Below are positions 23,610 to 50,628 of a DNA stretch of 64,000 bases, in pieces. The first letter of the stretch is position 1; each line of letters begins with the position of its first letter. The DNA is taken from assembly GCA_964519305.1 (NCBI GenBank), contig CAZFHY010000001.1, positions 64,001 to 128,000 on the forward strand. The letters run 5' to 3'. The notes beneath the pieces are model-generated. The model worked only from the letters and a program-made list of their open reading frames with translations, searched no databases and had not been told where the DNA came from. This DNA is from Candidatus Undinarchaeota archaeon (GTDB taxonomy: Archaea > SpSt-1190 > JASMDC01). The position numbers and the translations under genes were made by a program.

Positions 23610-23662
23610 GGTGTGTCATGACCCGACCAAGGCTTAAAAAACTTGGAGGATGTGCCGCGATC

Positions 23663-24289
23663 ATGCTATCTCTTGACGACGGGAAGCTCCTCGTACGAAC
23701 GGCTCGAGCGGTCCTCGAATCCCAGCTTGGGGGCGATGTGGATGTGCCCTCCCTCCCGAAGCACTTCAAGGGGAAACGGGGTGTCTTCGTCACTCTTCAC
23801 ACACATCCCGATGACGAGCTGCGGGGTTGCATCGGATTCCCGCTACCTATCCTGCCCCTCGACGAGGCGGTTGCTGAGGCCGCAATCTCGGCCGGGACCC
23901 GGGACCCGCGTTTCCCGCCTGTCAGGCTCGCTGATATGGACCGGATCATCGTCGAGGTGTCGGCGCTGACACCGCCCGAGACCATCGAGACCAAAGATCC
24001 CAAGGACCGGGAGAAGGAGGTGGTCATCGGCCGTGACGGGCTCATCATCAAGTATGGTATGTTCTCGGGTCTGCTCCTGCCCCAAGTACCCGTGGAACTG
24101 GGCTGGGACGTCAATACCTTCCTCGAGCACACGTGCCTCAAAGCAGGGTTGACCGCCGATATGTGGCTCGAGCCCCGCGCCCAACTCCAGCGGTTCCAGG
24201 CCCAGGTCTTCAGCGAGACGTCCCCCAGGGGCAAGGTCGTCGTCAAGGAAGGTGTCACGTGCGGAGGGGATGGTGAGGACGATGAGTGA
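23663..24289 (+). CDS. AMMECR1/AmmeMemoRadiSam protein A family
   Basis: GVFVTL, LRGCIG, DPRFPPV, EVSALT, GLLLPQV, CLKAGL. Start ATG 23663. Confidence 0.93.
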   Translation: MLSLDDGKLLVRTARAVLESQLGGDVDVPSLPKHFKGKRGVFVTLHTHPDDELRGCIGFPLPILPLDEAVAEAAISAGTRDPRFPPVRLADMDRIIVEVSALTPPETIETKDPKDREKEVVIGRDGLIIKYGMFSGLLLPQVPVELGWDVNTFLEHTCLKAGLTADMWLEPRAQLQRFQAQVFSETSPRGKVVVKEGVTCGGDGEDDE

Positions 24290-30766: not shown

Positions 30767-32149
30767 CTACTCCAATCCCTTGTAGAACTTGAGGAACTTC
30801 CCGAACGAGCGGAGCAGGTGCCTTGCGTCACGCCCGCCACGGACACGCGCGGCCCTTCGAGCCATGAAGGCAGGATCGAGGTAGAAGGTCCGATAGGCCC
30901 AGGTCGTTGCCTGCTTGACGTCATCTGCCGTGAACTCTGGGCGAGAGAGATGCCCGGTCTCGTCCAACCAACCCTTTCGGACGGCCTGCGAGTAGAGAGG
31001 TGTGTCTGGATATGGGAGGATTGAGCGGAATATCGTGAAGTCGGATCCGACCTCTCTGACGAAGCTCACGGTACGGGCCACGCTCTCCCATGTCTCCCCG
31101 GGGAGTCCAACGATGATGAGCGCGCCTGCTGCGATCCCCGCCTCATGGACCGCGGAGAACGCGTTGCGTACCGTACCGAGGTCCACACCCTTCCCCGTGG
31201 AGCGAAGGATGTCAGGATCGGCGCTCTCCACACCTATGTCTATTCGGAAGCACCCTGCACGAGCCAGTGCCCCGGCGACCTCCTTGTCGAGACCATCCGC
31301 ACGGGCGGTGATGACCCAGTTCACGTCAAGGTCCCGTTCCTGAAGCTCACGAGCGATACCAAGGACACGGTCGCGATCGTGAAGGAAGTCCTCGTCTATC
31401 ACCCGGAACTCGCGGACACCCAGGCGTTCGCTGACCTCCTGGAACTCGTCGGCCACGTTCTCAGGGCTCCGTCCTCGCCATTCGCGACGTTTCGAGAAGC
31501 TCCGCGAGCAGAAGCTGCATCGATGGACGCATCCCCTGCTGGTGACCATGTTCGTGTAGTGCACGTCCTCCTTTACCAGATAGTGGATGTATCGATCGAG
31601 AGGGAATAGGTGCCTTGCGGGAAAGGGGAGAGTATCGAGGTCGGTATGCGGTCGATCAGGATTGACGATCGTCCGGCCACGGTCGCTCCAAACGAGCCCA
31701 TCGACGCGGGCCGGGTCCCAAGAGCCGGACAATAGGTCCGAGATCATTCCCTCATGATCATCGATCGAGATCGCATCGACTACGTCGAGCGCTCTCTTAT
31801 GAAGAGATGGACCGATGAGTCCCATGAGCACCAGCCTTGTGTCAGGAGCGACCTCCCGTATCGCCCGGGCGTCGGTCAGCACAGGCTCAATGGATGTCGA
31901 CGAGGCAGGTATCACGATGGCATCTGGGTCCTGCTGCTCAACTTGTCCGAGCACATCATCGAAGGGCGTCTGCAGTGCGTTAGCGTCCATGACGGATACC
32001 GAGCAACCGGACGCAAGGAGCGATGAAGCAACGGAGGCGAGGTTGACCGGGAACTCTACGACGTCCACGGGAGGTGTGTCGCCGAATAGTATGTCGCGGA
32101 ACTGGTAGCAGCCCTGCGGCGGTGGATTGAGGAGGAGGATGCCTCCCAT
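30767..32149 (-). CDS. B12-binding domain radical SAM protein
   Basis: LLLNPP, DLDTLPFPARHL, SRGCVHRCSFC, RSPENVADE, IGVES, IVGLPGET, PYPDTPLY. Confidence 0.9.
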   Translation of the reverse strand: MGGILLLNPPPQGCYQFRDILFGDTPPVDVVEFPVNLASVASSLLASGCSVSVMDANALQTPFDDVLGQVEQQDPDAIVIPASSTSIEPVLTDARAIREVAPDTRLVLMGLIGPSLHKRALDVVDAISIDDHEGMISDLLSGSWDPARVDGLVWSDRGRTIVNPDRPHTDLDTLPFPARHLFPLDRYIHYLVKEDVHYTNMVTSRGCVHRCSFCSRSFSKRREWRGRSPENVADEFQEVSERLGVREFRVIDEDFLHDRDRVLGIARELQERDLDVNWVITARADGLDKEVAGALARAGCFRIDIGVESADPDILRSTGKGVDLGTVRNAFSAVHEAGIAAGALIIVGLPGETWESVARTVSFVREVGSDFTIFRSILPYPDTPLYSQAVRKGWLDETGHLSRPEFTADDVKQATTWAYRTFYLDPAFMARRAARVRGGRDARHLLRSFGKFLKFYKGLE

Positions 32150-32236
32150 ATAGGAATGACTACGCATGAATCCTTATAACGGTTGCCTCAGGGAAACGCG
32201 GCCTTCCCCGAGCGTGTGGGAAGGCCGCGAATCCAC

Positions 32237-34493: not shown

Positions 34494-35477
34494 ATGAGGC
34501 TCAGGAACAAGGCCAGAGCGGGATGGGCAATACTCAAGGCCCACCTCTTCGGCACCAAGACTCCTGTCTCGGTCGTGCTCATGAGCAACGACTCGTGCAA
34601 CCTCAAGTGCAAATACTGTGCCATCTGGAAGACCAAGCGACGTCAGATGACCACCAAGGAGCTCCTTGACCTCGTGGACGAACTGGCTGACATGGGTTGC
34701 GTTCGCATATCCATCTTCGGTGGCGAACCGCTCGTCCGTGATGACATCGGTCAGATCGTCGACCATATCCATAAGCGCGGTATCAACGTCGGTCTGGGTT
34801 CGAACGGGATCCTCGTTCCCAAGAAGATCGACCAGTTGAAGGATCTGGACCATCTTCATATCAGTCTGGACGGTCCCGAGGACTACCATGATATCCAGCG
34901 CGGAAAGGGGAGCCATGCCTCGGCCATCCGTGCCATCAAGGCCGGGAAGAAGGCAGGTCTCACCGTATGGACTATGACCGTGCTCACCAAGCACAACCTC
35001 CAAGTGGTCGACTACATGCTGGATCTTGCTGACGAGCATGACATGATCGCCTACTTCCATCCGGTCTCTCCGCGGGCAGACTCTGGACCCTATGTAAAGG
35101 ACCTCGTCCCGCCGCTCGATGCATATCGAGCCACGATCGAGCTCATCCTCAAGCGTAAGGCCGAGGGACGGAGGGTGGGTAACTCAACGACTGCCCTGAA
35201 CTACTTCCTGCACTTCCCCAAGCAGACGATGGACTTCAGGTGCTGGGCAGGCAAGCTGTTCTGTCACATCGATGCGAACGGCGATGTGTTCGGGTGCCTG
35301 GAGAACAAGGACAAGTCTCCGCCCAACAACCTCCTTGACAAGGGATTCCGCAAAGCGTGGGACGAGATCACGAGAGGACCATGCCCGGGATGTTGGAGCT
35401 ATTCCACGTCCGACTTCAACTTCCTGTTCTCCCTCGAGCCCCATGTCATCTGGAACACCATCAAGCTGACCCGTTGA
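34494..35477 (+). CDS. Radical SAM protein with twitch/SPASM-like C-terminus
   Basis: CNLKCKYC, FGGEPL, ISLDG, CWAGKLFCHIDANGDVFGC, CPGC. Confidence 0.88.
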   Translation: MRLRNKARAGWAILKAHLFGTKTPVSVVLMSNDSCNLKCKYCAIWKTKRRQMTTKELLDLVDELADMGCVRISIFGGEPLVRDDIGQIVDHIHKRGINVGLGSNGILVPKKIDQLKDLDHLHISLDGPEDYHDIQRGKGSHASAIRAIKAGKKAGLTVWTMTVLTKHNLQVVDYMLDLADEHDMIAYFHPVSPRADSGPYVKDLVPPLDAYRATIELILKRKAEGRRVGNSTTALNYFLHFPKQTMDFRCWAGKLFCHIDANGDVFGCLENKDKSPPNNLLDKGFRKAWDEITRGPCPGCWSYSTSDFNFLFSLEPHVIWNTIKLTR

Positions 35478-39225: not shown

Positions 39226-39552
39226 ATGCCGAAGTTGACGTGCCCCGCCTGCGGGCACGGGTGCTGGGTGGAATCGAGACTGTTCACCATCGTCAAGTGC
39301 CCTCAGTGCGAGGACCCGTTCGTCGTTAGCGAACGGGATGGAGAGCTCGTGGCCCAACCGGCCTTGTGCACCGGGTGTGGAAAGGACACACACCCGGACC
39401 AACTTTCCCAGAGATGGGACTCAGGGTACGGCTGGGGCCTCTTGTGCCAAGAATGTCAGGAGGAATGGGACCGGGAGTTCCCGACAATGACACTTGAGGG
39501 CGCTGTCGCCCGGTTGCGAGAGGATAACGGGCTACCGAAATGGAGGGCGTGA
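39226..39552 (+). CDS. Small double zinc-ribbon protein
   Basis: Four CxxC pairs (CPAC, CPQC, CTGC, CQEC); TATA TTTAATAT at 39196; stop overlaps the next ATG (TGATG). Confidence 0.7.
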   Translation: MPKLTCPACGHGCWVESRLFTIVKCPQCEDPFVVSERDGELVAQPALCTGCGKDTHPDQLSQRWDSGYGWGLLCQECQEEWDREFPTMTLEGAVARLREDNGLPKWRA

Positions 39553-41876
39553 TGCCCCTGCGCGTTCACCGCGCACGAACGGTCGTGCTCGTCCTCCTCG
39601 TGTTGCTCGGGTGCGGTGCTGCGATCTCAGTGGACGGTACCTCCGAGGAATGGGACCATTCGAAGGCCGTGCAGGACCCTGCTGATGACACGCTCCTGGA
39701 CGTCCCAGGCCTCGACATAAGCTCGTTCTCCGTAGAGGTCGACAACGATACGGTCTACCTGATGGTCGGTACATGGTACCCGCTCCGTTCCGATGACCTC
39801 CTCCTAGAGCTAACTCTGGGGGATATGGTGTTGAACATTGACGGAAAAGGAGCGCGGTGGTGGCGGGACGGGACGGACTACCCGCCGGTCTGGATCGAGG
39901 AGGCCCAGGTGGCCTTCGACGAGGTCATCGAGCTGTCCATCCCTCGCTCGAAGGTACGGGGCGACCCGTTACATATCGAGCGCCTGAACCTCTGGGTCTC
40001 GGGTGACACCAGCGCGGCGGACGTGGCGGATGCCTGTCCCTTGAGTTTCGGAGAGCACCAAATCGCTCCCGTCCTCGCCGGGGTACATCAGGTCGACGGG
40101 CTCGCCAGCGAGTGGGGTGCGCCAATAGCACGTGACAGGGAGGGCGATGCTCCCGGACCGGACAGGGACATCTCTGCGATATACCTCGAGGTAGAGGGGG
40201 AGGACCTACATCTCGCCATGTCCACTGCAGGTGACAGTGTGCCGCTCAACGCCATGTTGGAGCTCACGCTCGGGGACGCAATCCTCAACATCGATCGAGA
40301 GGGAGTGCGTTGGTACGACAAGGGTACCGAGTTCCCGCCGCGGAAGCTCGAGGGGGCCGCGGTCGCCCTCGGCGAGCTGTTCGAGGTGAAGCTACCGATC
40401 GAGCACGTCCTCATAGGTGATGTGGTATACATCGAGCGCCTGAACCTCTGGACGGAGGGGCGTCCTGACGATCAGGGTGATTTCGCTCCATTGGCGTTCA
40501 ACACGACGACCAACACCATAGCCGATCCCGTCGCCTCCCTTTCCGTCGATATAAGACACGGAAAAGGCACCCATCTGGAGGTCAAGCTGACCGTCGAGGG
40601 TGCCGATGGCTTTGTGGACATGGGGTTCTTTCGTGGCACCTGCCCATTCGTCCGGCAACCGGCGGGAGGACGCGCTCGGGGCCGTGGGACATGTGGGTTC
40701 AGGATCACCCTCCCCTCCGCGCCCGTGTATTACACGGTCGACCTTGAGACCATTCAAGGGAGCGATCCGTTCGCACGGCTCGCTAACGATGTATGGGTCA
40801 TCCCGCTAGCGGTGCTGCTACCAGAAGTACGCAACGCCCGGATCTCCGAGGTGTCCCTGCACTTCGACCTACCGGATGGTTGGAACGCCGTTGCACCGAT
40901 GGTCCAGAACGAACCGGGGGTCTTTTTCGCACAGGGATTGCCGTTCACGGAGGTGCGGATGCTACGTGTCCTGCTCGGTCGGTTCGAGCGCTTGGACGAC
41001 AGGATAGAGGATGTGAGCTTCTCCCTCTTCCACGCAGGTATCCCTGCCGAACGCGTCAAGCTGTCCGTGGAGCGTATCAAGCGATACCTCCCCTATTGTC
41101 AGAAGGTGTTCGGTGAGTGGCCGGGTGGTGACCTCTCCGTTGTCGTCATCGGTCCACGCGATCCCTCATCAGGTTTCTGCCACGGGGTGGTCGAAGGTGG
41201 TATGGTGGTCGTCGACGCGCGACAACAGTGCAACGAGGAGGCTCACGAGGTCGTCCATCTCTGGATGATGGGCTCCATCCGCATCGCATCTCTCAAGGAC
41301 CGATGGCTCGGCGAAGGTGTGGCAGAGTACTATGGCCTCAAGACACGGCTGATGACCGATGAGTGGGACGAAGCGAGATTTCTCAGTGAACTGCGCGAGC
41401 GTGCAGCCCAGCCGCCAGGTTGGTACGTGGACCTCGTGAACGCCGGTGAACGGAGCGAGACCGATCCCCAGGCCGTCCAGGCCCTCTATGCAAAAGGTGC
41501 ACTTGCCATCTACCTGCTAGATAAGGAGATGGTCGAAAAGACGGGGGATGTGCGTGGGCTCGACCTCCTCATGCAGCGCCTGTACAATGAGTATGGACGA
41601 ACCGGACGGGCGGTCACGACGAGCGATGTCATCGAAGAGGCATCGTCCATAGTGGGCGAGGACCTAGGGCCGTTCATCCGGGCCCTGCTCGACGGCACAG
41701 CGCCGATCCCGGAAGAGCTAACTCCCTCCCTGGCAGCCGTGAAGGCCGATCCTAGTGACGAGAGGTGCGAGATAGAGCTGGCCCGACTCCAGAGGCGGGA
41801 ACGTTCGCTGCTCGTACTGCTCGCCCTACTCGCAGTATTCGCACTTCGGAGAGGCCGACAGGTGAGCGAGGACTAG
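39552..41876 (+). CDS. Membrane-anchored secreted gluzincin (M1/M61-like) with duplicated N-terminal domain
   Basis: Signal peptide; two similar ~150-aa domains (VDG..EW, LELTLGD, IERLNLW; 21-nt identity at 39975 and 40431); AHEVVHLW...WLGEGVAEY...YAKGAL; C-terminal TM plus RRGR. Confidence 0.85.
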   Translation: MPLRVHRARTVVLVLLVLLGCGAAISVDGTSEEWDHSKAVQDPADDTLLDVPGLDISSFSVEVDNDTVYLMVGTWYPLRSDDLLLELTLGDMVLNIDGKGARWWRDGTDYPPVWIEEAQVAFDEVIELSIPRSKVRGDPLHIERLNLWVSGDTSAADVADACPLSFGEHQIAPVLAGVHQVDGLASEWGAPIARDREGDAPGPDRDISAIYLEVEGEDLHLAMSTAGDSVPLNAMLELTLGDAILNIDREGVRWYDKGTEFPPRKLEGAAVALGELFEVKLPIEHVLIGDVVYIERLNLWTEGRPDDQGDFAPLAFNTTTNTIADPVASLSVDIRHGKGTHLEVKLTVEGADGFVDMGFFRGTCPFVRQPAGGRARGRGTCGFRITLPSAPVYYTVDLETIQGSDPFARLANDVWVIPLAVLLPEVRNARISEVSLHFDLPDGWNAVAPMVQNEPGVFFAQGLPFTEVRMLRVLLGRFERLDDRIEDVSFSLFHAGIPAERVKLSVERIKRYLPYCQKVFGEWPGGDLSVVVIGPRDPSSGFCHGVVEGGMVVVDARQQCNEEAHEVVHLWMMGSIRIASLKDRWLGEGVAEYYGLKTRLMTDEWDEARFLSELRERAAQPPGWYVDLVNAGERSETDPQAVQALYAKGALAIYLLDKEMVEKTGDVRGLDLLMQRLYNEYGRTGRAVTTSDVIEEASSIVGEDLGPFIRALLDGTAPIPEELTPSLAAVKADPSDERCEIELARLQRRERSLLVLLALLAVFALRRGRQVSED

Positions 41877-42796
41877 AGAAGTGTATCGCGGGACACAGGC
41901 GTGCCCTGGACCGGGATGAGCTCGTCCGTACCGAAACGCTCGGCGTATTCGCGCCACACGCCTTCACAGATCAGGTTGTACCTGCACACATGACATTGCG
42001 GCCCCTTACGCTTGTCATCCTCTCTGCGTGACCGCCTGTACTCACGCTCCACACGCCCAGGCTCACGCACCTCGCACGAGGCCATATGCAGCTCGATGGC
42101 CTGTTGCTTATGGTCCGGCATGAGACAGTAGGGTATGGCTTCATAGAAGGCAGGGATCCCCGCAGAGGTGGTCACGTCCAGGGCCTCGGCCACGTACCTG
42201 GCCGCCTGGGATATGACTGGGACTATGGTGTCCGCTTCGACTTCAGCGTTGCCCATGGGATGGACGAAGTCGAACTGCATGGAGTCCGGCCCGAATTCGA
42301 TAAGGAACCTCGCGATGTCAGGGAGCACTGCATAGTTCGGTTTCGCGACCACCGTATTGGTGATGACGGTCAGCGGGGCATCGCACACGTTACGCAGCCC
42401 CGCGATGGCCTGGTCAAAAGCGCCCGGCGATTTGGTGAGGTGATCATGGAGCGCGGCCACGTGCCCATGGACGGCCGGTACAACCTGGGTGAGGCCCGCG
42501 GCAACAAGGTCGTTCACGAGGTCACGATAACTGAGCATCCGGGCATTCGTCTGGAGCTGGACATCGCGATAGCCTAGACGATGCGCCATGGTGATTATGT
42601 CGACAAGTTTGGGGTCAAGGGTGGGCTCGCCACCCGTGATCACGAGGAAGTCGGCACCATCAGCTCGACCTGCGCGAAGGTCACCCTCAACATCTGTTAG
42701 GTTCTTGGACCTGCGGCCCCGCTTGTCAGCTACAGCACAGAAGCGGCAGTTATTGTTACAGCTGTAGCCCAATTTTAGGTCTAAACGATGCACCAT
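41873..42796 (-). CDS. HxsC-like radical SAM maturase (paralog 1)
   Basis: CNNNCRFC, TGGEPT, QTN, EAIPYC, C-terminal CHVCRYNLICEGVW; starts 25 nt after the precursor stop. Confidence 0.85.
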   Translation of the reverse strand: MVHRLDLKLGYSCNNNCRFCAVADKRGRRSKNLTDVEGDLRAGRADGADFLVITGGEPTLDPKLVDIITMAHRLGYRDVQLQTNARMLSYRDLVNDLVAAGLTQVVPAVHGHVAALHDHLTKSPGAFDQAIAGLRNVCDAPLTVITNTVVAKPNYAVLPDIARFLIEFGPDSMQFDFVHPMGNAEVEADTIVPVISQAARYVAEALDVTTSAGIPAFYEAIPYCLMPDHKQQAIELHMASCEVREPGRVEREYRRSRREDDKRKGPQCHVCRYNLICEGVWREYAERFGTDELIPVQGTPVSRDTLL

Positions 42797-42821
42797 CTGT
42801 CGCTACTAGTCCCCGTCCGGC

Positions 42822-43160
42822 TTAATGGCTGTTGCAGTGAGACCCGTGCGAGGTATGGCTGTCGTGGTTCGAGTGGGCAGGGTCGTAGTGGGAGTGCACA
42901 GCCTTTATGGTCGAACCGGAGTAGTGGATTCCCGCAGCGCTCTGAGAGTGATCGTACGGGTTGTTGGTATGCGACGCATGTGAACTGTGGCTGCCATGGC
43001 TCGTATGCCAACTTGTCGCTGGTTTGGCTATGAGGCTGGAGAACGCATAGCCCGACAGGATGGCCCCCATGGAAAACAGATTTCTCTTTGTGATCCTGCC
43101 CTCCTCCTCTACGAGGAAGGACTTGATGCTTTTCTGAATCTTTGGTAGTGTCTTTGTCAT
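42822..43160 (-). CDS. hxsA: His-Xaa-Ser repeat RiPP precursor (HxsA-like)
   Basis: WHTSHGSHSSHASHTN and HSNHDSHTSHGSHCNSH blocks; GGAGTGA ribosome-binding site; flanked by HxsB/C/D-like genes. Confidence 0.9.
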   Translation of the reverse strand: MTKTLPKIQKSIKSFLVEEEGRITKRNLFSMGAILSGYAFSSLIAKPATSWHTSHGSHSSHASHTNNPYDHSQSAAGIHYSGSTIKAVHSHYDPAHSNHDSHTSHGSHCNSH

Positions 43161-43214
43161 CGTTGATCACTCCAGCTAGTACTCACTCTCTGTTACATAC
43201 TATAGATTAGCTAG

Positions 43215-43222
43215 CTTATAAA
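43215..43222 (-). promoter_or_regulatory. TATA box (TTTATAAG) for the precursor gene
   Basis: Lies in the AT-rich 96-nt gap between the hxsB stop and the hxsA start. Confidence 0.55.
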
Positions 43223-43256
43223 CCTATCGTCGGCTTAAAAGGCATCCGGTACCCCT

Positions 43257-44684
43257 TTAGTCAAGCGTTCTCGCCCATTCGAGAAGGATCGAGCGGTCCT
43301 TTGGATCCACGATGATTTTATGGAATAGGTGCTCAACGAGCCCGCCCCGTATCGCGCATTCCTTATCCATGGGGAGCTTGGACACCAGATTCCCTTGGGA
43401 ACCATAGGTGCAAACGGCACACGAGCCGCAATAGGGGTGCCAGATACAGGTGTCGCACATGGTGCATACATGGGATGTCAGCCCCACGAGGTGTTGGACC
43501 TGAGGTGAGGTGAACACTCCCTTGTAAGTATCATCCCGCACATTGCCGATGCGGAATATATCGAAGGAACGTGATTCATCACATGCGTAGATATCGCCGT
43601 CCTGGGTATAGGCCACCTGGTTGAGGGCCGCACCGCAGGGTGAACCGAAGCACGTGTACGTAGAGGCTTTCAAGCACAGGATCTTACGCAGAACGATCGT
43701 GGCCATGTTCTCATGCATGCGCACGCCCTGTCGGTTGAGGTCGATTATGTACTCGAGCGTGTCCTTGTAGAAGCGCATGAACTCGTCGGCGGAGTAGCCC
43801 ACCTCTTTCCATCGCTCGGCTGCGAACCCTGCGTCATTGAGCTGGCGGATCCGGATGTTGGGGAAGCCCCATTTCACGTACTCGTCGACGATCTCCTTTC
43901 CGTACGAAAGGGAGTGCTTCGAGATGGTCGGAAGAGCTGAGAGGCCTACATGCTTGATGTTGCGGATGCGGTTGATCCAGTAGGTGACATTCTCGTATGA
44001 ACCAGCGCCACCAAAGTACCGTCGGTTCGCGTCGTGGACCTCCTCGGGCCCGTCCAGTGATGTGCAAAGGCCGAACCTGTTGGAGGCAAGATAGTCGAGC
44101 TTGTCGTCCGTCATCAGGGAGAGGTTGGTGACCATGAGGAAGGTCATCCGCTTCTTCTTGAGATGGGCCTGGTCCTTGGCGTACTCGGTTATGTAGTGGA
44201 CCATGTCGAACGCCGCCAGAGGCTCACCCCCCTGGAACTCGAGTGTAAGGTCCCGGCCAGGAGACTGCATGATGAAGTCCACCGTAGCACGGGCGGTCTC
44301 CTCGTCCATGTCCACGCCTGTCGTATCCATGGGGCGGGATTTCGCATGACAATAGACACAGGTGAAGTTGCACCGCAGGGTGGGGACCACTATGTGGAGC
44401 ACGACGCCACGGTCGAGGTGGGCGAAGCGACTGCGATATTGCTCTGCCAGTCCGTCCATGTCATCTTCATGCACCATGACACCGATACCACGGAGCGTGA
44501 GCATCAGGTTCGGGTCCTCGGTGATGCGGCCTAGTCGAAGGAGATCGTACTCACGCTTGGTAAGAACCGCCCACGAACCATGATCCGCGGTGATCAGGTA
44601 CTTGTCCTTCGCCAAACGCTTCGTCTGATAGCGGTTGATGAGGTGCGGTCCCTCGCTGAGTCCCTCAAAGAAGGTCTCTACCAT
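43257..44684 (-). CDS. hxsB: His-Xaa-Ser system radical SAM/SPASM maturase HxsB
   Basis: LHIVVPTLRCNFTCVYCHA, LEFQGGEPL, TSLDGPEEVHDANR, SPCGAALNQVAYTQDGDIYACDE, CDTCIWHPYCGSCAVC. Confidence 0.9.
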   Translation of the reverse strand: MVETFFEGLSEGPHLINRYQTKRLAKDKYLITADHGSWAVLTKREYDLLRLGRITEDPNLMLTLRGIGVMVHEDDMDGLAEQYRSRFAHLDRGVVLHIVVPTLRCNFTCVYCHAKSRPMDTTGVDMDEETARATVDFIMQSPGRDLTLEFQGGEPLAAFDMVHYITEYAKDQAHLKKKRMTFLMVTNLSLMTDDKLDYLASNRFGLCTSLDGPEEVHDANRRYFGGAGSYENVTYWINRIRNIKHVGLSALPTISKHSLSYGKEIVDEYVKWGFPNIRIRQLNDAGFAAERWKEVGYSADEFMRFYKDTLEYIIDLNRQGVRMHENMATIVLRKILCLKASTYTCFGSPCGAALNQVAYTQDGDIYACDESRSFDIFRIGNVRDDTYKGVFTSPQVQHLVGLTSHVCTMCDTCIWHPYCGSCAVCTYGSQGNLVSKLPMDKECAIRGGLVEHLFHKIIVDPKDRSILLEWARTLD

Positions 44685-44688
44685 GCAT

Positions 44689-44931
44689 CTACGCCTTCAT
44701 GATGCCGAGCACGTAGTTCAGGAACTCATAACCGAGCTGGTTGATCCTGATCTTCTTGCTCCGTGGAGTGAGGGTCACTCGCACGAGGCCTTCAGCATCT
44801 CCATCAACGTACACCCAGCAGGTCTCGAGATAGGCCTGGGAGGCCTGCATTACCGCGTCCATCGGATAGAAACGGGTATCAAGGTCGAGCACGACGGTCC
44901 TGAGATCCTTATCGACAGTGACGATCTTCAT
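44689..44931 (-). CDS. HxsD-like protein (short copy)
   Basis: LDTRFYPMDAVMQASQAYL...YEFLNYVL; clearly paralogous to the adjacent HxsD. Confidence 0.75.
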   Translation of the reverse strand: MKIVTVDKDLRTVVLDLDTRFYPMDAVMQASQAYLETCWVYVDGDAEGLVRVTLTPRSKKIRINQLGYEFLNYVLGIMKA

Positions 44932-44934
44932 GCG

Positions 44935-45420
44935 CTACTCCTCCGTTCCGCTCCAGGGCTTGGCGATCCCTTCAGGATCATCCCTGTACGAGGAGTCTCC
45001 CTCTGATGGAGGGCACCCGCACGGATCGGCGCCGGAGTCGGCGCTCTCGCTGGTCAGGAATGCGCGGCGCACGATGGCGTCCCGCACGTCCTGGTTCCGC
45101 GCTGTCTGGATCGTGTAGACCGCGTAGTTGATGAGCTCGTTGTTGAACTCTCTACCGAGCTTCTCGAGGCTCTCCCGCTTGCTCTTCGGCCGGATCTCCA
45201 CAAGGACCTCTTCCTGCGGATCACCGCCGAGGATCAGGTACGCCCTGTCCATGAGGACATAGGCTGCTGAGTAGATGATCTGGAGCGGATAGATCCGGGG
45301 ATTCACGGATACGAGTATATACCCCTCCTTTTTGTGAATCTCGAGATTATTGATCACGCTAAAACCCTCGTTCGGGTCTTTCTTCGATTCTGGTTTTTTC
45401 TTCGTCGCACGCTTAGCCAT
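44935..45420 (-). CDS. hxsD: His-Xaa-Ser system protein HxsD-like
   Basis: VNPRIYPLQIIYSAAYVLMDRAY...REFNNELINYAVY...VRDAIVRRAF, with DDPEGIAKPW near the C-terminus. Start trimmed to ATG 45420. Confidence 0.82.
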   Translation of the reverse strand: MAKRATKKKPESKKDPNEGFSVINNLEIHKKEGYILVSVNPRIYPLQIIYSAAYVLMDRAYLILGGDPQEEVLVEIRPKSKRESLEKLGREFNNELINYAVYTIQTARNQDVRDAIVRRAFLTSESADSGADPCGCPPSEGDSSYRDDPEGIAKPWSGTEE

Positions 45421-45456
45421 GGAACGCACCCCGGAAGGCCGGAAGGCCTTGCAAAG

Positions 45457-45465
45457 CTTTAATAG
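45457..45465. promoter_or_regulatory. Candidate bidirectional TATA (CTTTAATAG) between the two arms of the Hxs cluster
   Basis: Most TATA-like box in the 110-nt gap between ATG 45420 (-) and ATG 45531 (+). Confidence 0.45.
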
Positions 45466-45530
45466 TTTGCGCTCGGCCTTTCCCATTGCCTGCTCTTCCT
45501 ATGCTGGCCTCTCGTTTGGATGTTTTGGCG

Positions 45531-46463
45531 ATGGGGATCAAGAGACTTGATTTGAAGGTTGGATTCGCCTGTAACAACAACTGCCGGTTCTGTGTCGTCG
45601 CCGACAAGCGGAGGCTCGGGAACCTGAGCACAGGACAGCTCAAGGAGAACATCGTTAACGGCGCCCGCTCGGGTGCCAAGGAGATCGTCTTCACTGGTGG
45701 TGAGGTCACCCTCCGCAAGGACCTTCTGGAACTCATCCGGTTCGCCAAGAACCAAGGTTTCACAAGGCTCCAGCTCCAGTCGAACTGTAGGATGCTGTTC
45801 TACAAGGATTTCATCCACAAGCTCCTTGACGCCGGTATCAATGAGTTCTCCCCTTCGATCCATGGATCGACCCCCGAGGTGCATGATGGTCTAGTTCGCG
45901 CTCCCGGCGCATACAAGCAGACGCTGGGCGCCATCCGTAACCTCGTCGACATGGACCTCCGAGTACTCACGAACACGGTCATCACACGTCAGAACTACGA
46001 GCAGCTGCCCCAGATTGCCCAGATACTCATCGATATCGGTGTCATGCAGTACCAGTTCGCCTTCGTACATGCGGAGGGGAACGCCTACAAGTACTTTGAC
46101 GAGATAGTCCCCCGGAAGTCGGTGATACAGCCCTATGTCCACAAGGGCGTGGATCTGGGAGCGGAGTCCGGTACATCGATGATGGTAGAGGCCTACCCGT
46201 TCTGCTTCATGGTGGATCGGGAGCAGTACTGCTCTGAGCTATTCATCCCCGAGACCGAGGTCCGCGAGGCCGATCGCGTTCTTGAGAACTTCAGTGATGT
46301 CCGTCGGAACGTCGCCAAGCTCAAAGGCCCGGACTGTCCTCGATGCAGATACTACCCTATCTGCGAAGGACCATGGAAGGAGTATCCCGAGAAATTCGGA
46401 TGGGAAGAGTTCGTGCCAGTGCCCGGTCAGCCCATCACCGATCGGCTAGAACTGCTCCACTGA
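45531..46463 (+). CDS. HxsC-like radical SAM maturase (paralog 2)
   Basis: RLDLKVGFACNNNCRFCVVADKR (close to paralog 1), TGGEVT, EAYPFC, CPRCRYYPICEGPW. Confidence 0.85.
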   Translation: MGIKRLDLKVGFACNNNCRFCVVADKRRLGNLSTGQLKENIVNGARSGAKEIVFTGGEVTLRKDLLELIRFAKNQGFTRLQLQSNCRMLFYKDFIHKLLDAGINEFSPSIHGSTPEVHDGLVRAPGAYKQTLGAIRNLVDMDLRVLTNTVITRQNYEQLPQIAQILIDIGVMQYQFAFVHAEGNAYKYFDEIVPRKSVIQPYVHKGVDLGAESGTSMMVEAYPFCFMVDREQYCSELFIPETEVREADRVLENFSDVRRNVAKLKGPDCPRCRYYPICEGPWKEYPEKFGWEEFVPVPGQPITDRLELLH

Positions 46464-46472
46464 GGGGCCATC

Positions 46473-47441
46473 ATGGCGACCCACCTTTTACGGCTAGGCC
46501 ATTCCTGTGACCACGCATGCCGCTATTGCACCGTGGCGGACGATCCCGATCCAGAGCTCTCCCGGGAGGATGCGCTGGCCCGCGTCGATGCAGTGCCCAA
46601 GGGCGAGGGATTGACCATCACCGGTGGAGAACCTACTCTGCACCCCGACCTACTGGAGATAGTCCGGCGGGCGAAGGAGCGGGGACTCTTCCCCGTTGAC
46701 CTCCAGACGCACGGAGCGCACCTGTGCGATGCATCCCTGGTGGAGCGTCTACAGGAAGCGGGGCTCGATATAGCCCTTGTGTCCGTACCGTCACATGAGA
46801 AGAAGGTCTATCACGAGCTCACCGGCAAGGACGACCTTGACAAAGTACTGGCCGGTATCAGCGCGCTCCTGGAGGTCGGTATCGAGACGAACATAGACCA
46901 CGTCATCACAGCACGCACTTACCGTTCCCTCCCGGACTTCGTAGACGTCATCGGCAAGCGATTCCCGGGGGTCAACCGTATCCTCCTTGGGATGGTGCGG
47001 CCCAATGGAGCATGCGCCCGGCATCCCGAGCTGGTTCCCCGTCTGGTAGAGCTGGAACCTTTCCTGTATGATGCGCTGGACCGCCTTCGGAACAGGCGCG
47101 CGTACTACGAGGTGGAAGGTGTGCCCTTGTGCTATCTTCAGGGATACGAGCATCATAACGCTGAGACGCAGCGCGCCCTTGACGCCCCTGTTTCCTACGC
47201 TGGAGGTAAGCGGCGGCGCGATATCCACGGATTCGTGCATTCCCAGTTGAAACGCAAAGCGGCCGTATGTGAGCGCTGCCTTCTGGACCCGCTCTGTGTA
47301 GGGGTGTGGGTGGAGTATGCCCAGCTCAACGGGACGAACGAACTGTTCCCGGTGTTCACTCCACCGGACCGTGTGCGTGAACGGATGGAACGGTACTATC
47401 AGCGATGGAGGGAGGAGTATCGTAGACGTAGGTCTAGGTAA
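46473..47441 (+). CDS. HxsC-like radical SAM maturase (paralog 3)
   Basis: CDHACRYC, TGGEPT, EGVPLC, CERCLLDPLCVGVW. Confidence 0.85.
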   Translation: MATHLLRLGHSCDHACRYCTVADDPDPELSREDALARVDAVPKGEGLTITGGEPTLHPDLLEIVRRAKERGLFPVDLQTHGAHLCDASLVERLQEAGLDIALVSVPSHEKKVYHELTGKDDLDKVLAGISALLEVGIETNIDHVITARTYRSLPDFVDVIGKRFPGVNRILLGMVRPNGACARHPELVPRLVELEPFLYDALDRLRNRRAYYEVEGVPLCYLQGYEHHNAETQRALDAPVSYAGGKRRRDIHGFVHSQLKRKAAVCERCLLDPLCVGVWVEYAQLNGTNELFPVFTPPDRVRERMERYYQRWREEYRRRRSR

Positions 47442-48258
47442 CGCATGCAACAACTCGTGCGTCATGTGCACTTCCATCATGCCGCCTCCTAAGGACGTGG
47501 ATCCCACCACCGAGCAGATCAAAGCCCATATCAATGGGCTCGATGAGCCGGACATCATCATCTTCACCGGCGGCGAACCGACCCTCCGCCCCGACCTCGA
47601 GGAACTCGTCCGATATGTACGCCAGCGGTTCCCGGACACTCCGTTCAGGCTCCTCACGAACGGTCGGATGTTCTCCTATCGTGACTACACAGAAAGGATG
47701 GTATCGGCTGGAGTCGATGACGTCGAAGTATCGCTCTGCGGACCCTCCGCCGAGGTGCACGATGCAGTGACCCGCGCACCAGGCTCTTTCATCCAGTCGC
47801 TCGAAGGCATCCGGAACCTCGTGTCGGCAGGAGTGCATACGAACGTGCGCTACGTGCTCCATGAGCTCACCTACAAGAGCGTGGTCGACGTCCCGGACCT
47901 TCTGGACAGGGAAGCGCCGGGCATAGGGCAGCTGGTCGTCATGTATATGGACATAATCGGTAACGCCCTGCGCCACCGGAAGCAGCTCATCGTCCCGTAC
48001 AGGGATGTCGCACCCTACGTGGAGCGCACCGCTGATGTCGCTGTCGAACGGGGGATATCACTGGCCTTGTACCATATACCGTCCTGTGTCATCGCCCCTG
48101 CCTACCGTCATCTCTCAGCGGGCGTCACCGTCATCGAGCGACGCATCACCTATCCACCCCAATGCGAGCGATGTACCGTCCGAAGCTCGTGCTGTGGTGT
48201 GTGGAAGACCTATACCAAGGACGTGGGCGTAGATGAGTTCGTCCCGGTCATCGAATGA
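47377..48258 (+). CDS. hxsC: Radical SAM maturase most similar to canonical HxsC (paralog 4; start uncertain)
   Basis: CNNSCVMCTSIMPP, TGGEPT, LLTNGRMFS, MYMDIIGNA, LYHIPSC, CERCTVRSSCCGVW. Confidence 0.8.
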   Translation: MNGWNGTISDGGRSIVDVGLGNACNNSCVMCTSIMPPPKDVDPTTEQIKAHINGLDEPDIIIFTGGEPTLRPDLEELVRYVRQRFPDTPFRLLTNGRMFSYRDYTERMVSAGVDDVEVSLCGPSAEVHDAVTRAPGSFIQSLEGIRNLVSAGVHTNVRYVLHELTYKSVVDVPDLLDREAPGIGQLVVMYMDIIGNALRHRKQLIVPYRDVAPYVERTADVAVERGISLALYHIPSCVIAPAYRHLSAGVTVIERRITYPPQCERCTVRSSCCGVWKTYTKDVGVDEFVPVIE

Positions 48259-48270
48259 TATGACCGCTGT

Positions 48271-50628
48271 CTAGAGGCCCTCATCACCGAATATGTCCGC
48301 ATCCTCTTCTTCCTTGTCGGATGAGGTCTCGTCAGCGGTTTCCTTCGTCCCCTCATCCCCCGCCCCGGGGGCTGCCGGGTAGCGGCCTGCCGACGGGTAG
48401 CGGCCCGCGTAGGCGTCCTTTGGACCGGCCTCTTTATCCCCTCGGTGGTAATGGGCCGGTCGCGCCATCTTGGCACGAGCGTAGTAGCCCGCTTCCTCCT
48501 CCGAGCTCTCGTCCTTGAAGTGGTCCACCAACTCGCTGATTAGTCCGGTGATCATCTCCTTCTTCTCACCGAACACGGTCACATAGATCACACCAAGCCC
48601 CAGGTCCATGCGCACCCAGATGCCCAGGAACTTCTTGGAGTAGGCGCCCATCCCCGAGTAGATCAGGTCCACGGATCGCTTCTCCTTGTTCACCAGCTGC
48701 TTGACCGTGTGGATGCCTGAGAACCGCTCCGCGATACGCTTGATCGCCTCCTTGGGAGGGATGGTGAGCTCGATGGTCTGCTGGTTCGACTCAAGCTCGG
48801 TGATCCTCTTCTTGAACGTTATGGTGTCCATCGGCACACCTACGAGGAACGGACACACGCTCCCCACGTTTATTGGATCGAACTCCTCCATCTTACGCTC
48901 TCCGCGGTTGTCATGGTAGACGACAGTACCACCGATCTTGGCGTTAACGCACCGGTGTGGGATGAGCAGGAAGATGGCCGACTGGAACTCATCCGGTTTG
49001 ATGGCCCCTAGAGAGATTAGCTTCGAGCCGTGCTCCACCTCGAAGGCCTCCGGTACGTCGAGGTTCACATCCACGTCGGTTATGGAGAAGGTGGAATGGT
49101 TATGTACCTTGATGCCGATCTTGATGTGGTTACCCTCACGTGTGACACCCCGCATGATATCGACCTCCTCGTGACCGATCACACGCTTCTTGGCGAACTG
49201 GAGGCCTAGGTAGATAATACCCATGAGACCGAATATGTCGATCCACTCAGTAACGGCATCGAGCATGTTCAGGTCGAGCTTCTCCTCCATGTTACCGATC
49301 TCCACCTCGGCAAGGTTCATGTCGCTCTGGGCCTTGCATTCCTTCATGATGGTCTCGATCTTCGTCATGGAGGCGTTGAACCGTAAGGCGTCGTCGTCAG
49401 TGACGCGGAACATCACTCGCCAGACACTGCTCTTGAGGTTCGTGTCGTACATCTGGAGAACGTTGTAATACCGGTCCTTCAGCTCGACCGGTACGGTGCA
49501 GTCCTCCGAGGAGATGAGCTTGCGAACGGCTTCCAGCTCGTCAGGATTGCTGGCCACCTCGGTGGAATTACCATAGAAGAGCCTGACGTTCTTGAGCACG
49601 GGTGTGCAGAACCCATCCGAGGAGAAGAGGGCCTTGTACTGTATCCAGCGGTCGCCGATGTGGAGGCTGTTCACCCCGGAGGGCGATATCGTGTAGTGGT
49701 CTGTATTCTTATCGGGACCGAGCCACGTCGCATCCTCCAGCTCTATCTCGGTACGCGCGCTCCGGGTCTGGAGATTGATCGTGCACGGTGAGGGCGTATC
49801 CTTATCCCACGAAATCGTGGTGTAGACCGCGTCGGGCATCCCAGTATCGAACGGAGGTGACAGGAGCGTTCCCTGATTGATCCGCTTCATCTGCTTTCCA
49901 CTTGCGATATGTAAGGTCTTCATATAGAGCTTCGCAGGTCGCTCACGGGTACCGGTAGTAGATATCCTGATCGAGTTGACCTGGCTGCCGCTTTGCGTCC
50001 CCCGCAGTGCGTCACCGTGGGAAAGGAGTCGGATACCATCGCGGTAGACATTGAAGCTGGCCGAGACACCGACGAACATGATTCGCCATGTATGGTAGTT
50101 CTCCGTATCGGTCTTGCCCTCCCACTGACGGAAGCGCCGGTCCTGATTGTCAACCATGTCGATACCACTTCCATGGAACACGAAGCATGGACCACGGACC
50201 ACGGCATGGACGCAGATCCTCAGACCGCCCTGTTCTTCCATCCTGAACGTGGTCTCCAGGGTCCAATCGCTCTTGTCGGGTATGGACTCTGACCTGACGA
50301 TCATCGGATTTACCTTATCATTGCCATCATAGATGAACAATGTACCAGGTGGATCGACATCGATCACGGCCTTGACGTCATGCTGGTTCCGCTCCCATCC
50401 ATCCAGTGAAGGCCAGTTCGTGGAAAAAATGTTCCAGAGGGGGGTTTCGAAGTCAAGACGCACGGAGCCGTCAGGACCGGGAGTTGTCACATTGGAACGC
50501 GTGGTCAACAGGAAGTCATCGAGTGTATCAGTGTTCCAGATCCTGCCGGAGGCCATGGTGAGGGCTAGGAATAGAACGAGCACGATCCATCGTGCAGGGA
50601 GCCTGCTCGGGAGAATTCCCTCTACCAC
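48271..50628 (-). CDS. Single-pass membrane protein: large extracellular region, TM, and a cytoplasmic Ig-like plus platform domain resembling an adaptin appendage
   Basis: Signal peptide; TM WIDIFGLMGIIYLGLQF; then IKIGIKVHNHSTFSITDV...LGAIKPDEFQSAIF...CPFLVGVPMDTITFKK...; acidic tail. Confidence 0.75.
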   Translation of the reverse strand: MVEGILPSRLPARWIVLVLFLALTMASGRIWNTDTLDDFLLTTRSNVTTPGPDGSVRLDFETPLWNIFSTNWPSLDGWERNQHDVKAVIDVDPPGTLFIYDGNDKVNPMIVRSESIPDKSDWTLETTFRMEEQGGLRICVHAVVRGPCFVFHGSGIDMVDNQDRRFRQWEGKTDTENYHTWRIMFVGVSASFNVYRDGIRLLSHGDALRGTQSGSQVNSIRISTTGTRERPAKLYMKTLHIASGKQMKRINQGTLLSPPFDTGMPDAVYTTISWDKDTPSPCTINLQTRSARTEIELEDATWLGPDKNTDHYTISPSGVNSLHIGDRWIQYKALFSSDGFCTPVLKNVRLFYGNSTEVASNPDELEAVRKLISSEDCTVPVELKDRYYNVLQMYDTNLKSSVWRVMFRVTDDDALRFNASMTKIETIMKECKAQSDMNLAEVEIGNMEEKLDLNMLDAVTEWIDIFGLMGIIYLGLQFAKKRVIGHEEVDIMRGVTREGNHIKIGIKVHNHSTFSITDVDVNLDVPEAFEVEHGSKLISLGAIKPDEFQSAIFLLIPHRCVNAKIGGTVVYHDNRGERKMEEFDPINVGSVCPFLVGVPMDTITFKKRITELESNQQTIELTIPPKEAIKRIAERFSGIHTVKQLVNKEKRSVDLIYSGMGAYSKKFLGIWVRMDLGLGVIYVTVFGEKKEMITGLISELVDHFKDESSEEEAGYYARAKMARPAHYHRGDKEAGPKDAYAGRYPSAGRYPAAPGAGDEGTKETADETSSDKEEEDADIFGDEGL

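Follow-up and report, generated by a model that had tools for sequence, protein, structure and literature searches.

The window analysed here is a 64,000-nt stretch of contig CAZFHY010000001.1 (C1:64001–128000 of a 42-contig, 3.63-Mb genome that is 99.8% complete with 4.3% contamination), and our subject is a gene cluster at positions 41873–48258 of that window which belongs to the His-Xaa-Ser (Hxs) group of peptide-maturation systems. Listing of open reading frames (ORFs) and scans with NCBIfam and Pfam models find eight genes in two divergent arms, in which five radical SAM (rSAM) enzymes are grouped around one precursor peptide. With a probability of roughly 65%, we read the locus as a native, expanded archaeal-type Hxs maturation system whose five rSAMs modify one leader-bearing peptide directed to the cell envelope. 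The system itself is real, native and widespread in small-genome archaea.

The gene order is Ca-A-B-Drel-D and then, divergently, Cb-Cc-Cd. The left arm (minus strand) holds HxsD, an HxsD-related gene (HxsD-rel), HxsB, the HxS-repeat precursor (A) and one HxsC-family rSAM (Ca), and the right arm (plus strand) holds three further HxsC-family rSAMs (Cb, Cc and Cd). HxsB and Cd are thus separated by ∼2.6 kb and lie on opposite strands. The features are as follows.

41873–42796, minus: HxsC-family rSAM Ca, 307 amino acids (aa); best NCBIfam match HxsC4 (NF038332); 25 nt downstream of the precursor
42822–43160, minus: precursor, 112 aa; HxsA3 (NF038309) 49.8 bits; 8 HxS motifs
43161–43256, minus: 96-nt spacer upstream of the precursor; 44% GC, a TTTATAA box and a GGAG-type ribosome-binding site
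43257–44684, minus: HxsB, rSAM/SPASM maturase, 475 aa; TIGR03978 424.7 bits
44689–44931, minus: HxsD-rel, small protein of 80 aa; NF038315 43.2 bits
44935–45420, minus: HxsD, 161 aa from the ATG at 45420 (the ORF extends to 45486); TIGR03976 48.5 bits
45421–45530, no strand: divergent spacer between the arms, 110 nt; weak TATA-like TTTAATA
45531–46463, plus: HxsC-family Cb, 310 aa from the ATG at 45531 (ORF start 45486); HxsC4 177 bits
46473–47441, plus: HxsC-family Cc, 322 aa; moaA_archaeal 75 bits, HxsC4 74 bits
47317 or 47371–48258, plus: Cd, the HxsC proper of the locus, 295–313 aa; TIGR03977 177.8 bits

A first-pass annotation of the sequence had proposed this two-arm anatomy, with a CxxxCxxC motif and auxiliary Cys in all five rSAMs and more rSAMs than the bacterial four-gene Hxs system has. 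The ORF listing and both profile scans recovered the same genes, five rSAMs included, and the two Cys features are present in every one of the enzymes. Its view of the cluster as a native archaeal locus also stands. The top-scoring models for the rRNA operon of the genome are archaeal small-subunit (1508 bits) and archaeal large-subunit rRNA, and the best models for window genes include SMC_prok_A, PorA_Arch and archaetidylinositol-phosphate synthase, all of which supports an archaeal host. The neighbours of the cluster are housekeeping genes (SMC, CTP synthase, pyruvate:ferredoxin oxidoreductase), and a metagenome-assembled genome (MAG) of the same genus carries the complete eight-gene cluster in the same order, with 89–97% amino acid identity.

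One precursor for five radical SAM enzymes

The ORF directly downstream of HxsB encodes a peptide of 112 aa with 8 HxS motifs and 15 His, which falls into a leader (residues 1–27), a signal-like hydrophobic segment (∼27–45) and a His/Ser-rich core of 66 aa. The 27-aa leader region carries 7 Lys+Arg against 3 Asp+Glu ahead of the hydrophobic segment, and the Kyte–Doolittle maximum of the precursor, 1.29, falls at residues 27–45. The core contains 15 His (23%), 16 Ser, one Lys+Arg, three Asp+Glu and a single Cys near the C-terminus, and an HSHYDPAH motif stands between its two HxS arrays. The HxsA3 profile is matched on the leader side, over positions 2–68 of 81, and the score of 49.8 bits falls short of the cut-off of 65. 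TIGR03979, the model of bacterial HxsA, gave no match to the precursor, and a Pfam scan of it found no domain of any kind, a peptidoglycan-binding domain included.

The same organisation is found in other archaea. In an alignment of 15 archaeal precursors (alignment A1) the leader is conserved in the form lPkIKKxIxSFLxEEeGxxSK, and in all 15 it is followed by a hydrophobic segment and then by His-rich arrays; the related precursors match HxsA3 and HxsA4 weakly. The earlier guess of a surface-displayed product fits the signal-like segment, as far as the sequence can be taken as a guide. The second point to note is that the precursor appears to be the only one available to the five enzymes. When 30,302 ORFs of at least 40 aa from the whole genome were scanned, seven passed a crude His/HxS filter and only that of the window looks real, and a hidden Markov model (HMM) of the leader run over the genome matched the window precursor alone (E 1e-19; next best 2.9). 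By the ORF filter and the leader HMM, the first-pass statement of one precursor for five enzymes therefore holds over all 3.63 Mb.

That annotation had also given the locus TATA promoters, a claim that holds in part. TTTAWA is rare in the window, which is 60% GC and has 15 such sites on both strands. One of them (43222, minus strand; TTTATAA box in the 43217–43222 region) is correctly oriented and precedes the ATG of the precursor by 62 nt, as would be expected if the precursor had a promoter of its own. In the divergent spacer there is just the weaker TTTAATA, and the stricter TTTAWATA has two matches in the window, neither inside the cluster. The stretch is contained in eight marine or seawater DNA sequencing runs from two studies, a possible source.

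HxsB, the HxsD pair and the HxsC paralogues

The families TIGR03976–TIGR03979 were reportedly first named by Haft and Basu in 2011. HxsB is the member of the locus that is placed most firmly among them, with 424.7 bits against a TIGR03978 cut-off of 370 and a match over profile positions 4–466 of 466, and it contains Radical_SAM and Fer4_12 domains and a Cys-rich SPASM region (PF13186). Its next-best NCBIfam matches are maturases of the thioether-type SPASM group, PapB (156.8 bits) and the SCIFF maturase (123.2 bits), ahead of the cyclophane formers with which the first-pass annotation had drawn its analogy. Scores with the cyclophane formers GrrM/OscB (TIGR04261), YhhB and AmcB were 72.9, 64.4 and 59.1, for cut-offs of 310, 445 and 425, respectively.

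The N-terminal region of HxsB resembles a RiPP recognition element (RRE; RiPP, ribosomally synthesised and post-translationally modified peptide). A structure model of residues 1–100 (predicted local distance difference test, pLDDT, 74.5) has three strands followed by helices. Foldseek returned nothing for this model at E≤0.001. In a second look with VIA, the six top rows were all RREs, with 58–63 residues aligned at a root-mean-square deviation (rmsd) of 2.1–3.0 Å and Z of 5.1–6.6, values below 8 not being decisive: TigE (Z 6.6; 63 residues, 3.0 Å), TbiB1 (5.9 and 5.6), two entries of McbB (5.3 each) and the PbtF RRE (5.1). The next rows were the RRE-bearing RiPP enzymes ThcOx (4.1) and CteB (3.7 and 3.6), and the first unrelated row scored 3.5. 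On the strength of this model we have moderate confidence that the N-terminal domain of HxsB would bind the leader directly.

The HxsB of the window shares 46–50% identity with its counterparts in G168, G195, G102, G322 and G132, five genomes that belong to other sampled families, and only 34–41% with that of a family of its own class, hereafter f2. Both the leader type and the HxsD-rel gene are common to the window and several of those other lineages, and are not shared with f2. This pattern suggests either transfer between lineages or fast evolution in f2.

HxsD scores 1.5 bits under its TIGR03976 cut-off (48.5 against 50, profile positions 3–87 of 90), and HxsD-rel passes that of NF038315 (43.2 against 41). 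The pair is kept together in nine loci, where HxsD-rel has the motif GYEFxNYVL (alignment A2). The HxsD model (pLDDT 76) shows a confident alpha/beta core, to which no fold could be assigned: Foldseek gave nothing at E≤0.001, its top rows (E 0.02–0.16) being Rpb11-like subunits and chaperones of type III secretion, and the best rows of a wide VIA search (Z up to 7.5) were generic alpha/beta sandwiches. A C-terminal tail, DPEGIAKPW, is conserved in HxsD (alignment A3, 14 sequences); in many archaeal lineages the protein ends in a similar way after a variable acidic linker (window 44935–45060), and this tail could be a docking peptide. Prediction of a complex of HxsD, HxsD-rel and precursor residues 1–50 gave no answer (score 0.01, mark 0.32) and weighs neither way.

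The four remaining rSAMs are paralogues of ∼300 aa. Four auxiliary Cys columns are conserved at 0.95–1.0 over 60 HxsC-family rows, among them bacterial HxsC, and seven Cys columns are common to Ca, Cb, Cc, Cd and two annotated bacterial HxsC proteins. The first Cys of HxsC-family proteins lies at residues 12–26, so that the sequence starts at the rSAM motif and there is therefore no N-terminal domain of the RRE type. In E. coli, pull-downs recover HxsD together with HxsC, and processing requires all three of HxsB, HxsC and HxsD (Li et al., Nat Commun 2026, PMC13128918). Because HxsD binds HxsC there, and because the HxsC paralogues are without an RRE, we infer by analogy that HxsD and HxsD-rel may serve as adaptors for these enzymes.

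Each paralogue represents its own subfamily. None exceeds the TIGR03977 cut-off of 267.9 bits (Cd 177.8, Ca 91, Cb 87, Cc 66), and with HxsC4 (NF038332, cut-off 500) the scores were 181 for Ca, 177 for Cb, 118 for Cd and 74 for Cc. Relationships were taken from a quick IQ-TREE of 61 rows and a FastTree of 71 rows. Cd, whose best match is HxsC TIGR03977 (profile positions 32–291 of 292), falls in one clade with bacterial HxsC (Mesorhizobium and Methylobacter plasmids) and with archaeal HxsC-HxsB pairs; this clade comprises 12 rows in IQ-TREE (SH-aLRT 95) and 15 in FastTree (support 99). Cb belongs to the subfamily most widely conserved beside archaeal HxsB (16 rows, FastTree support 97), with orthologues of 43–54% identity in the Hxs loci of other families. 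It has 877 homologues at E≤0.001. The best 120 of these 877, beyond the same-genus copy, are 46–56% identical, and the sources named among them are Diapherotrites, Aenigmarchaeota, Woesearchaeota, Nanobdellota, Fermentimicrarchaeum and a few bacteria.

Cc is the most divergent of the four and MoaA-like, scoring 75 bits with moaA_archaeal, 74 with HxsC4 and 66 with HxsC. Its clade of 12–13 rows, support 95–98, includes members from f2, G132 and G195 (the G132 orthologue is 38% identical, 251 bits), with the reservation that the long-branched outgroup was placed inside the Cc group, so that neither the root nor the monophyly of Cc is certain. Ca carries CNNNCRFC and four auxiliary Cys. The possible start codons of Cd are restricted to 47317, 47371 and 47377, and the gene overlaps the 3′ end of Cc by 65–125 nt, because no start past the Cc stop would retain its CxxxCxxC. 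A public database calls the same-genus Cd orthologue as 265 aa, a length that implies a start at the Met within CxxxCxxC and is likely to be a gene-calling error.

Occurrence in archaea and genomic neighbourhood

The layout, which might have been taken for a singular oddity from the first-pass annotation, recurs across small-genome archaea. We used 401 archaeal genomes for profile counts and 61 for the co-occurrence of Cb-like genes and HxsB; since genomes in these sets are related to one another, co-occurrence counts overstate independence. TIGR03978 was found at E≤1e-50 in 36 of the 401 genomes, and over its cut-off in 19. The HxsC4 profile was found at E≤1e-45 in eight, all of them among the 36 with HxsB, and reached its cut-off in 0/401. 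Co-occurrence was strict in the set of 61. Cb-like genes (E≤1e-30) were present in 11 of these genomes and absent from the rest; HxsB was found at E≤1e-79 in ten of the 11, and the other one has a fragment of HxsB where a contig breaks off. A query of the genome contigs with HxsB returned three loci, one in the same-genus MAG and two encoding distant rSAMs.

Further rSAM genes commonly accompany HxsB. Among 31 HxsB stretches from other genomes, at least two such genes were present in 16, one in eight and none in seven; HxsB-like matches in G045 and G192 (108–110 bits, BLAST) were taken as other SPASM enzymes and left out of this tally. The f2 family, with genomes of 0.6–0.9 Mb, has HxsB at E≤1e-79 in eight of ten genomes and an HxsB fragment in a ninth. 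There the precursor comes directly after HxsB, and 3 to 6 HxsC-family genes lie alongside, though without an HxsC proper. In a further family (G102), five HxsC-family genes stand beside D, D-rel, B and A.

The seven stretches without a further rSAM include two contigs of <4 kb and three whose genomes have HxsC-family genes on another contig, namely Cb, Cc, a Ca-like gene and Cd in a row in G132, five genes in G195, and in G168 a single Cb-like one, which lies where a 6.4-kb contig begins. Because the D, D-rel, B, A module stops ≤∼1.5 kb from a contig end in these three genomes, the HxsB and HxsC modules may well be adjacent in the cell. It was also observed that many archaeal HxsB loci (L015, L008, L033, L035, L038, L040, L044 and others) end at a contig end in the precursor or within ∼1.5 kb after it. 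HxS repeats may break assemblies at this point, in which case neighbourhood surveys would undercount linked genes.

NCBI already names HxsB in MAGs of Aenigmarchaeota, Diapherotrites/Iainarchaeum and Nanoarchaeota (41–52% identity to the window HxsB), and the existence of the NCBIfam models HxsA3, HxsA4, HxsD_rel and HxsC4 shows that curators have seen Hxs variants. Outside subscription journals and supplements, which were beyond the scope of the literature search, the expanded archaeal architecture was not found described, nor was a paper found that mentions HxsA3 or HxsC4.

The genome of the window and that of its same-genus relative are large (3.63 and 3.8 Mb), whilst all 15 other sampled genomes of the class are of 0.6–1.2 Mb. 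Such a large-genome lineage, set within a class whose genomes are otherwise reduced, may shed light on the origin of genome reduction.

On either side, the cluster is bordered by a convergent gene for a large protein that is predicted to be membrane-bound or secreted: one of 778 aa (39540–41876, plus strand) with HExxH and a weak M1 peptidase match, and one of 785 aa (48271–50628, minus strand) without a family. Both were considered as parts of the cluster and set aside, since among the loci compared they had BLAST matches in the same-genus locus only. PADLOC, run on 24 window proteins, found no defence genes except a BrxH-like exonuclease-domain match on an RNase D gene. Viperin was also rejected; the PADLOC matches to it on the five rSAMs of the cluster are weak (27–43 bits) and are cross-hits typical of any rSAM. 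Elsewhere in the window are a 2196-aa protein with Laminin_G_3, FG-GAP, pentaxin, FGE-sulfatase and STIG1-like domains that looks like a giant surface protein (4765–11355, plus), a homologue of AMMECR1/AmmeMemoRadiSam protein A (23618–24289, plus), a B12-binding, HpnJ-like rSAM (30767–32167, minus; 163 bits) and a 327-aa SPASM/twitch-like rSAM resembling mycofactocin maturase (34494–35477, plus; 103 bits).

Proposed maturation, competing explanations and known systems

The bacterial HXS system of E. coli (HxsD-HxsB-HxsC-HxsA) is an antiphage system with a periplasmic effector (PMC13128918). There HxsA is cleaved, modified (+8 Da on SHRSS), exported and anchored to peptidoglycan, and it blocks the entry of phage DNA; the mechanism proposed by the authors is that its basic HxS repeats bind DNA (PMC13128918). 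The survey in that paper covers bacteria only, with 99.7% of systems in Pseudomonadota, 99.8% of them four-gene systems and adjacent HxsB and HxsC in the order D-B-C-A in 99.6%, and the word ‘archaea’ is absent from its main text. This paper and its preprint were the only publications found in the literature search that treat the system; a 2022 JBC paper mentions HxsB and HxsC in passing.

In the archaeal system, the 112-aa precursor would be made from its own promoter, and its conserved leader would be recognised by the RRE-like N-terminal domain of HxsB. The RRE-less HxsC-family enzymes would probably reach the peptide through the HxsD/HxsD-rel pair, by analogy with E. coli. The five rSAMs, each with an auxiliary Fe-S site, would install several different modifications on the His/Ser core. 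Once modified, the peptide would be led by its hydrophobic segment into the cytoplasmic membrane or through it, placing the His-rich part on the outer face of the cell. Cd, the HxsC proper, may act at HSHYDPAH. H(S/T)HYDP is found in precursors of all four lineages in which an HxsC-proper gene scores 175 bits or more (G000/G001, G102, G132 and G195), and the f2 family is without both, the motif being absent from six precursors and the best TIGR03977 score being 82–97 bits in seven genomes. The co-occurrence of motif and Cd is a lead, drawn from sequence comparison, for enzyme specificity.

A number of observations weigh against this reading. The link between motif and Cd comes from few and related lineages. 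The precursor and HxsD are both below their curated cut-offs, and three of the four HxsC-family genes miss every curated cut-off. Export of the precursor is a prediction from its sequence, and the hydrophobic segment is moderate (Kyte–Doolittle 1.29). No RNA runs are listed among those that contain the stretch. In several archaeal genomes no HxsC gene adjoins the set of D, D-rel, B and A, and one of them (G116, 92% complete) has no HxsC-family gene at E≤1e-15 genome-wide. The locus lies among housekeeping genes and outside any defence island, and with one basic residue in the core and no peptidoglycan-binding domain, the electrostatic DNA-binding model from E. coli is not directly transferable.

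To the same side belong the data on Ca. In FastTree it groups with paralogues of the source genome that lie outside the cluster (4 rows, support 99), and Ca is tied to the pathway by adjacency alone. Further HxsC-family paralogues are found in this genome on contigs C4, C5 and C16, not beside any HxS peptide. At C5:2573–4889 and C16:14635–17051 a paralogue is accompanied by an rSAM that has a zinc ribbon of HMPTM type (PF23545) at its N-terminus, and at the C4 locus three rSAM genes adjoin two U32 peptidases. Because these extra copies adjoin HMPTM-type rSAMs or U32 peptidases, and not HxS peptides, the HxsC family has uses outside Hxs in the source organism.

These findings bear on the rival explanation that survives best, which we nevertheless consider unlikely: HxsB, Cd and the HxsD proteins alone would mature the precursor, and Ca, Cb and/or Cc would be broader twitch-type rSAMs with other substrates (a cofactor, a lipid or another protein), located nearby through tandem duplication or shared regulation. 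It draws on the paralogues elsewhere in the genome that have no HxS peptide nearby, and Ca does group with them; yet only 25 nt separate Ca from the precursor, which it follows on the same strand. Similarly, Cc scores with MoaA as well as with HxsC, but Cc and Cb orthologues adjoin HxsB or HxsA in many unrelated families, and among the 61 genomes searched Cb-like genes occur only in those that bear HxsB. Finally, whilst some archaeal loci consist of just D, D-rel, B and A, the f2 family keeps its 3 to 6 such genes beside HxsB in spite of having no HxsC proper.

More improbable still is a released RiPP product, for instance a metallophore or an antimicrobial peptide, whose N-terminal part would be a cleaved leader and whose His-rich core would bind Ni, Zn or Cu: the precursor is indeed short (112 aa) and without a globular domain, its conserved leader and the RRE-like domain of HxsB follow classical RiPP logic and its core is 23% His with a Cys at the end, but neither a transporter nor a leader peptidase is encoded in the cluster, the 778-aa HExxH protein beside it runs convergently and is conserved within the genus only, a signal-like hydrophobic segment follows the leader in 15/15 aligned precursors and the one studied homologue remains in the envelope (PMC13128918).

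Within the preferred reading of an expanded, envelope-directed system, the function of the product can be addressed by graded guesses. An envelope-level antiviral barrier is our tentative first choice, made by analogy and ranked first because E. coli HXS is the only experimental precedent. A metal-binding envelope peptide comes second and is rather unlikely, and the released RiPP ranks lower than either. The retention of the system in very small genomes and its housekeeping neighbourhood here agree with a constitutive envelope function no less than with a mobile defence island. A broader proposal, which we regard as doubtful, is that archaea with small genomes (DPANN-type) use expanded Hxs as a core pathway of the envelope, and not as a defence gene set present now and then, with each HxsC subfamily making its own modification at its own motif. 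The outcome would be a hyper-modified, membrane-exposed peptide of a hitherto unseen kind, which could act as a barrier to the entry of viral DNA or could serve episymbiotic cells in contact with metals or with the host.

The archaeal version offers a natural dissection of the radical chemistry of bacterial HXS, seen as +8 Da on SHRSS, with short, soluble-looking precursors and with enzyme subfamilies that come and go together with precursor motifs. Four to seven rSAM genes for one peptide of ∼110 aa, in archaeal genomes of 0.6–1.2 Mb that are among the smallest known, suggest an important envelope function. The organisms concerned spend their lives attached to other cells, and few defences are known from them. 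Should the product keep viral DNA out, this mode of immunity would reach beyond bacteria into archaea; a product that binds metals or mediates contact would instead represent a new type of modified peptide at the cell surface.

Among enzymes of solved structure, the closest in sequence to Cb are the twitch-type BlsE (7vob, E 2e-17) and SkfB (6efn, E 5e-8). They share with it the short rSAM core and a C-terminal auxiliary cluster, but the match is confined to the rSAM core of Cb (residues 8–185) and implies no functional link. HxsB, with its RRE-like, rSAM and SPASM parts, is built like the RRE-bearing SPASM maturases (PapB of ranthipeptides, SCIFF, QhpD, GrrM/OscB, YhhB and AmcB), although its scores with them, 59–157 bits, are far under every cut-off. 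As to the NCBIfam variants of the Hxs families, the leader of the precursor resembles HxsA3, the 80-aa protein passes HxsD_rel, and Ca and Cb both have HxsC4 as best match, although the precursor, Ca and Cb all remain under the cut-offs of HxsA3 (65) and HxsC4 (500).

From bacterial HXS, which has two rSAMs and a single HxsD-type protein, the archaeal locus differs in having five and two of these, respectively, and its HxsB and HxsC are non-adjacent and on opposite strands. Its precursor has 112 aa as against 214, is without the peptidoglycan-binding domain, carries one basic residue in a core of 66, and places a long conserved leader before the hydrophobic segment. Several features are common to both: HxsB is over the cut-off of its family, Cd lies in the bacterial HxsC clade and has the seven Cys of that clade, there is a homologue of HxsD, tandem HxS repeats and a predicted N-terminal export signal occur in the substrate, and the enzymes are without signal peptides. 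In addition, the auxiliary Cys of the archaeal paralogues match the ‘second 4Fe-4S’ Cys that were mutated in E. coli HxsC (PMC13128918).

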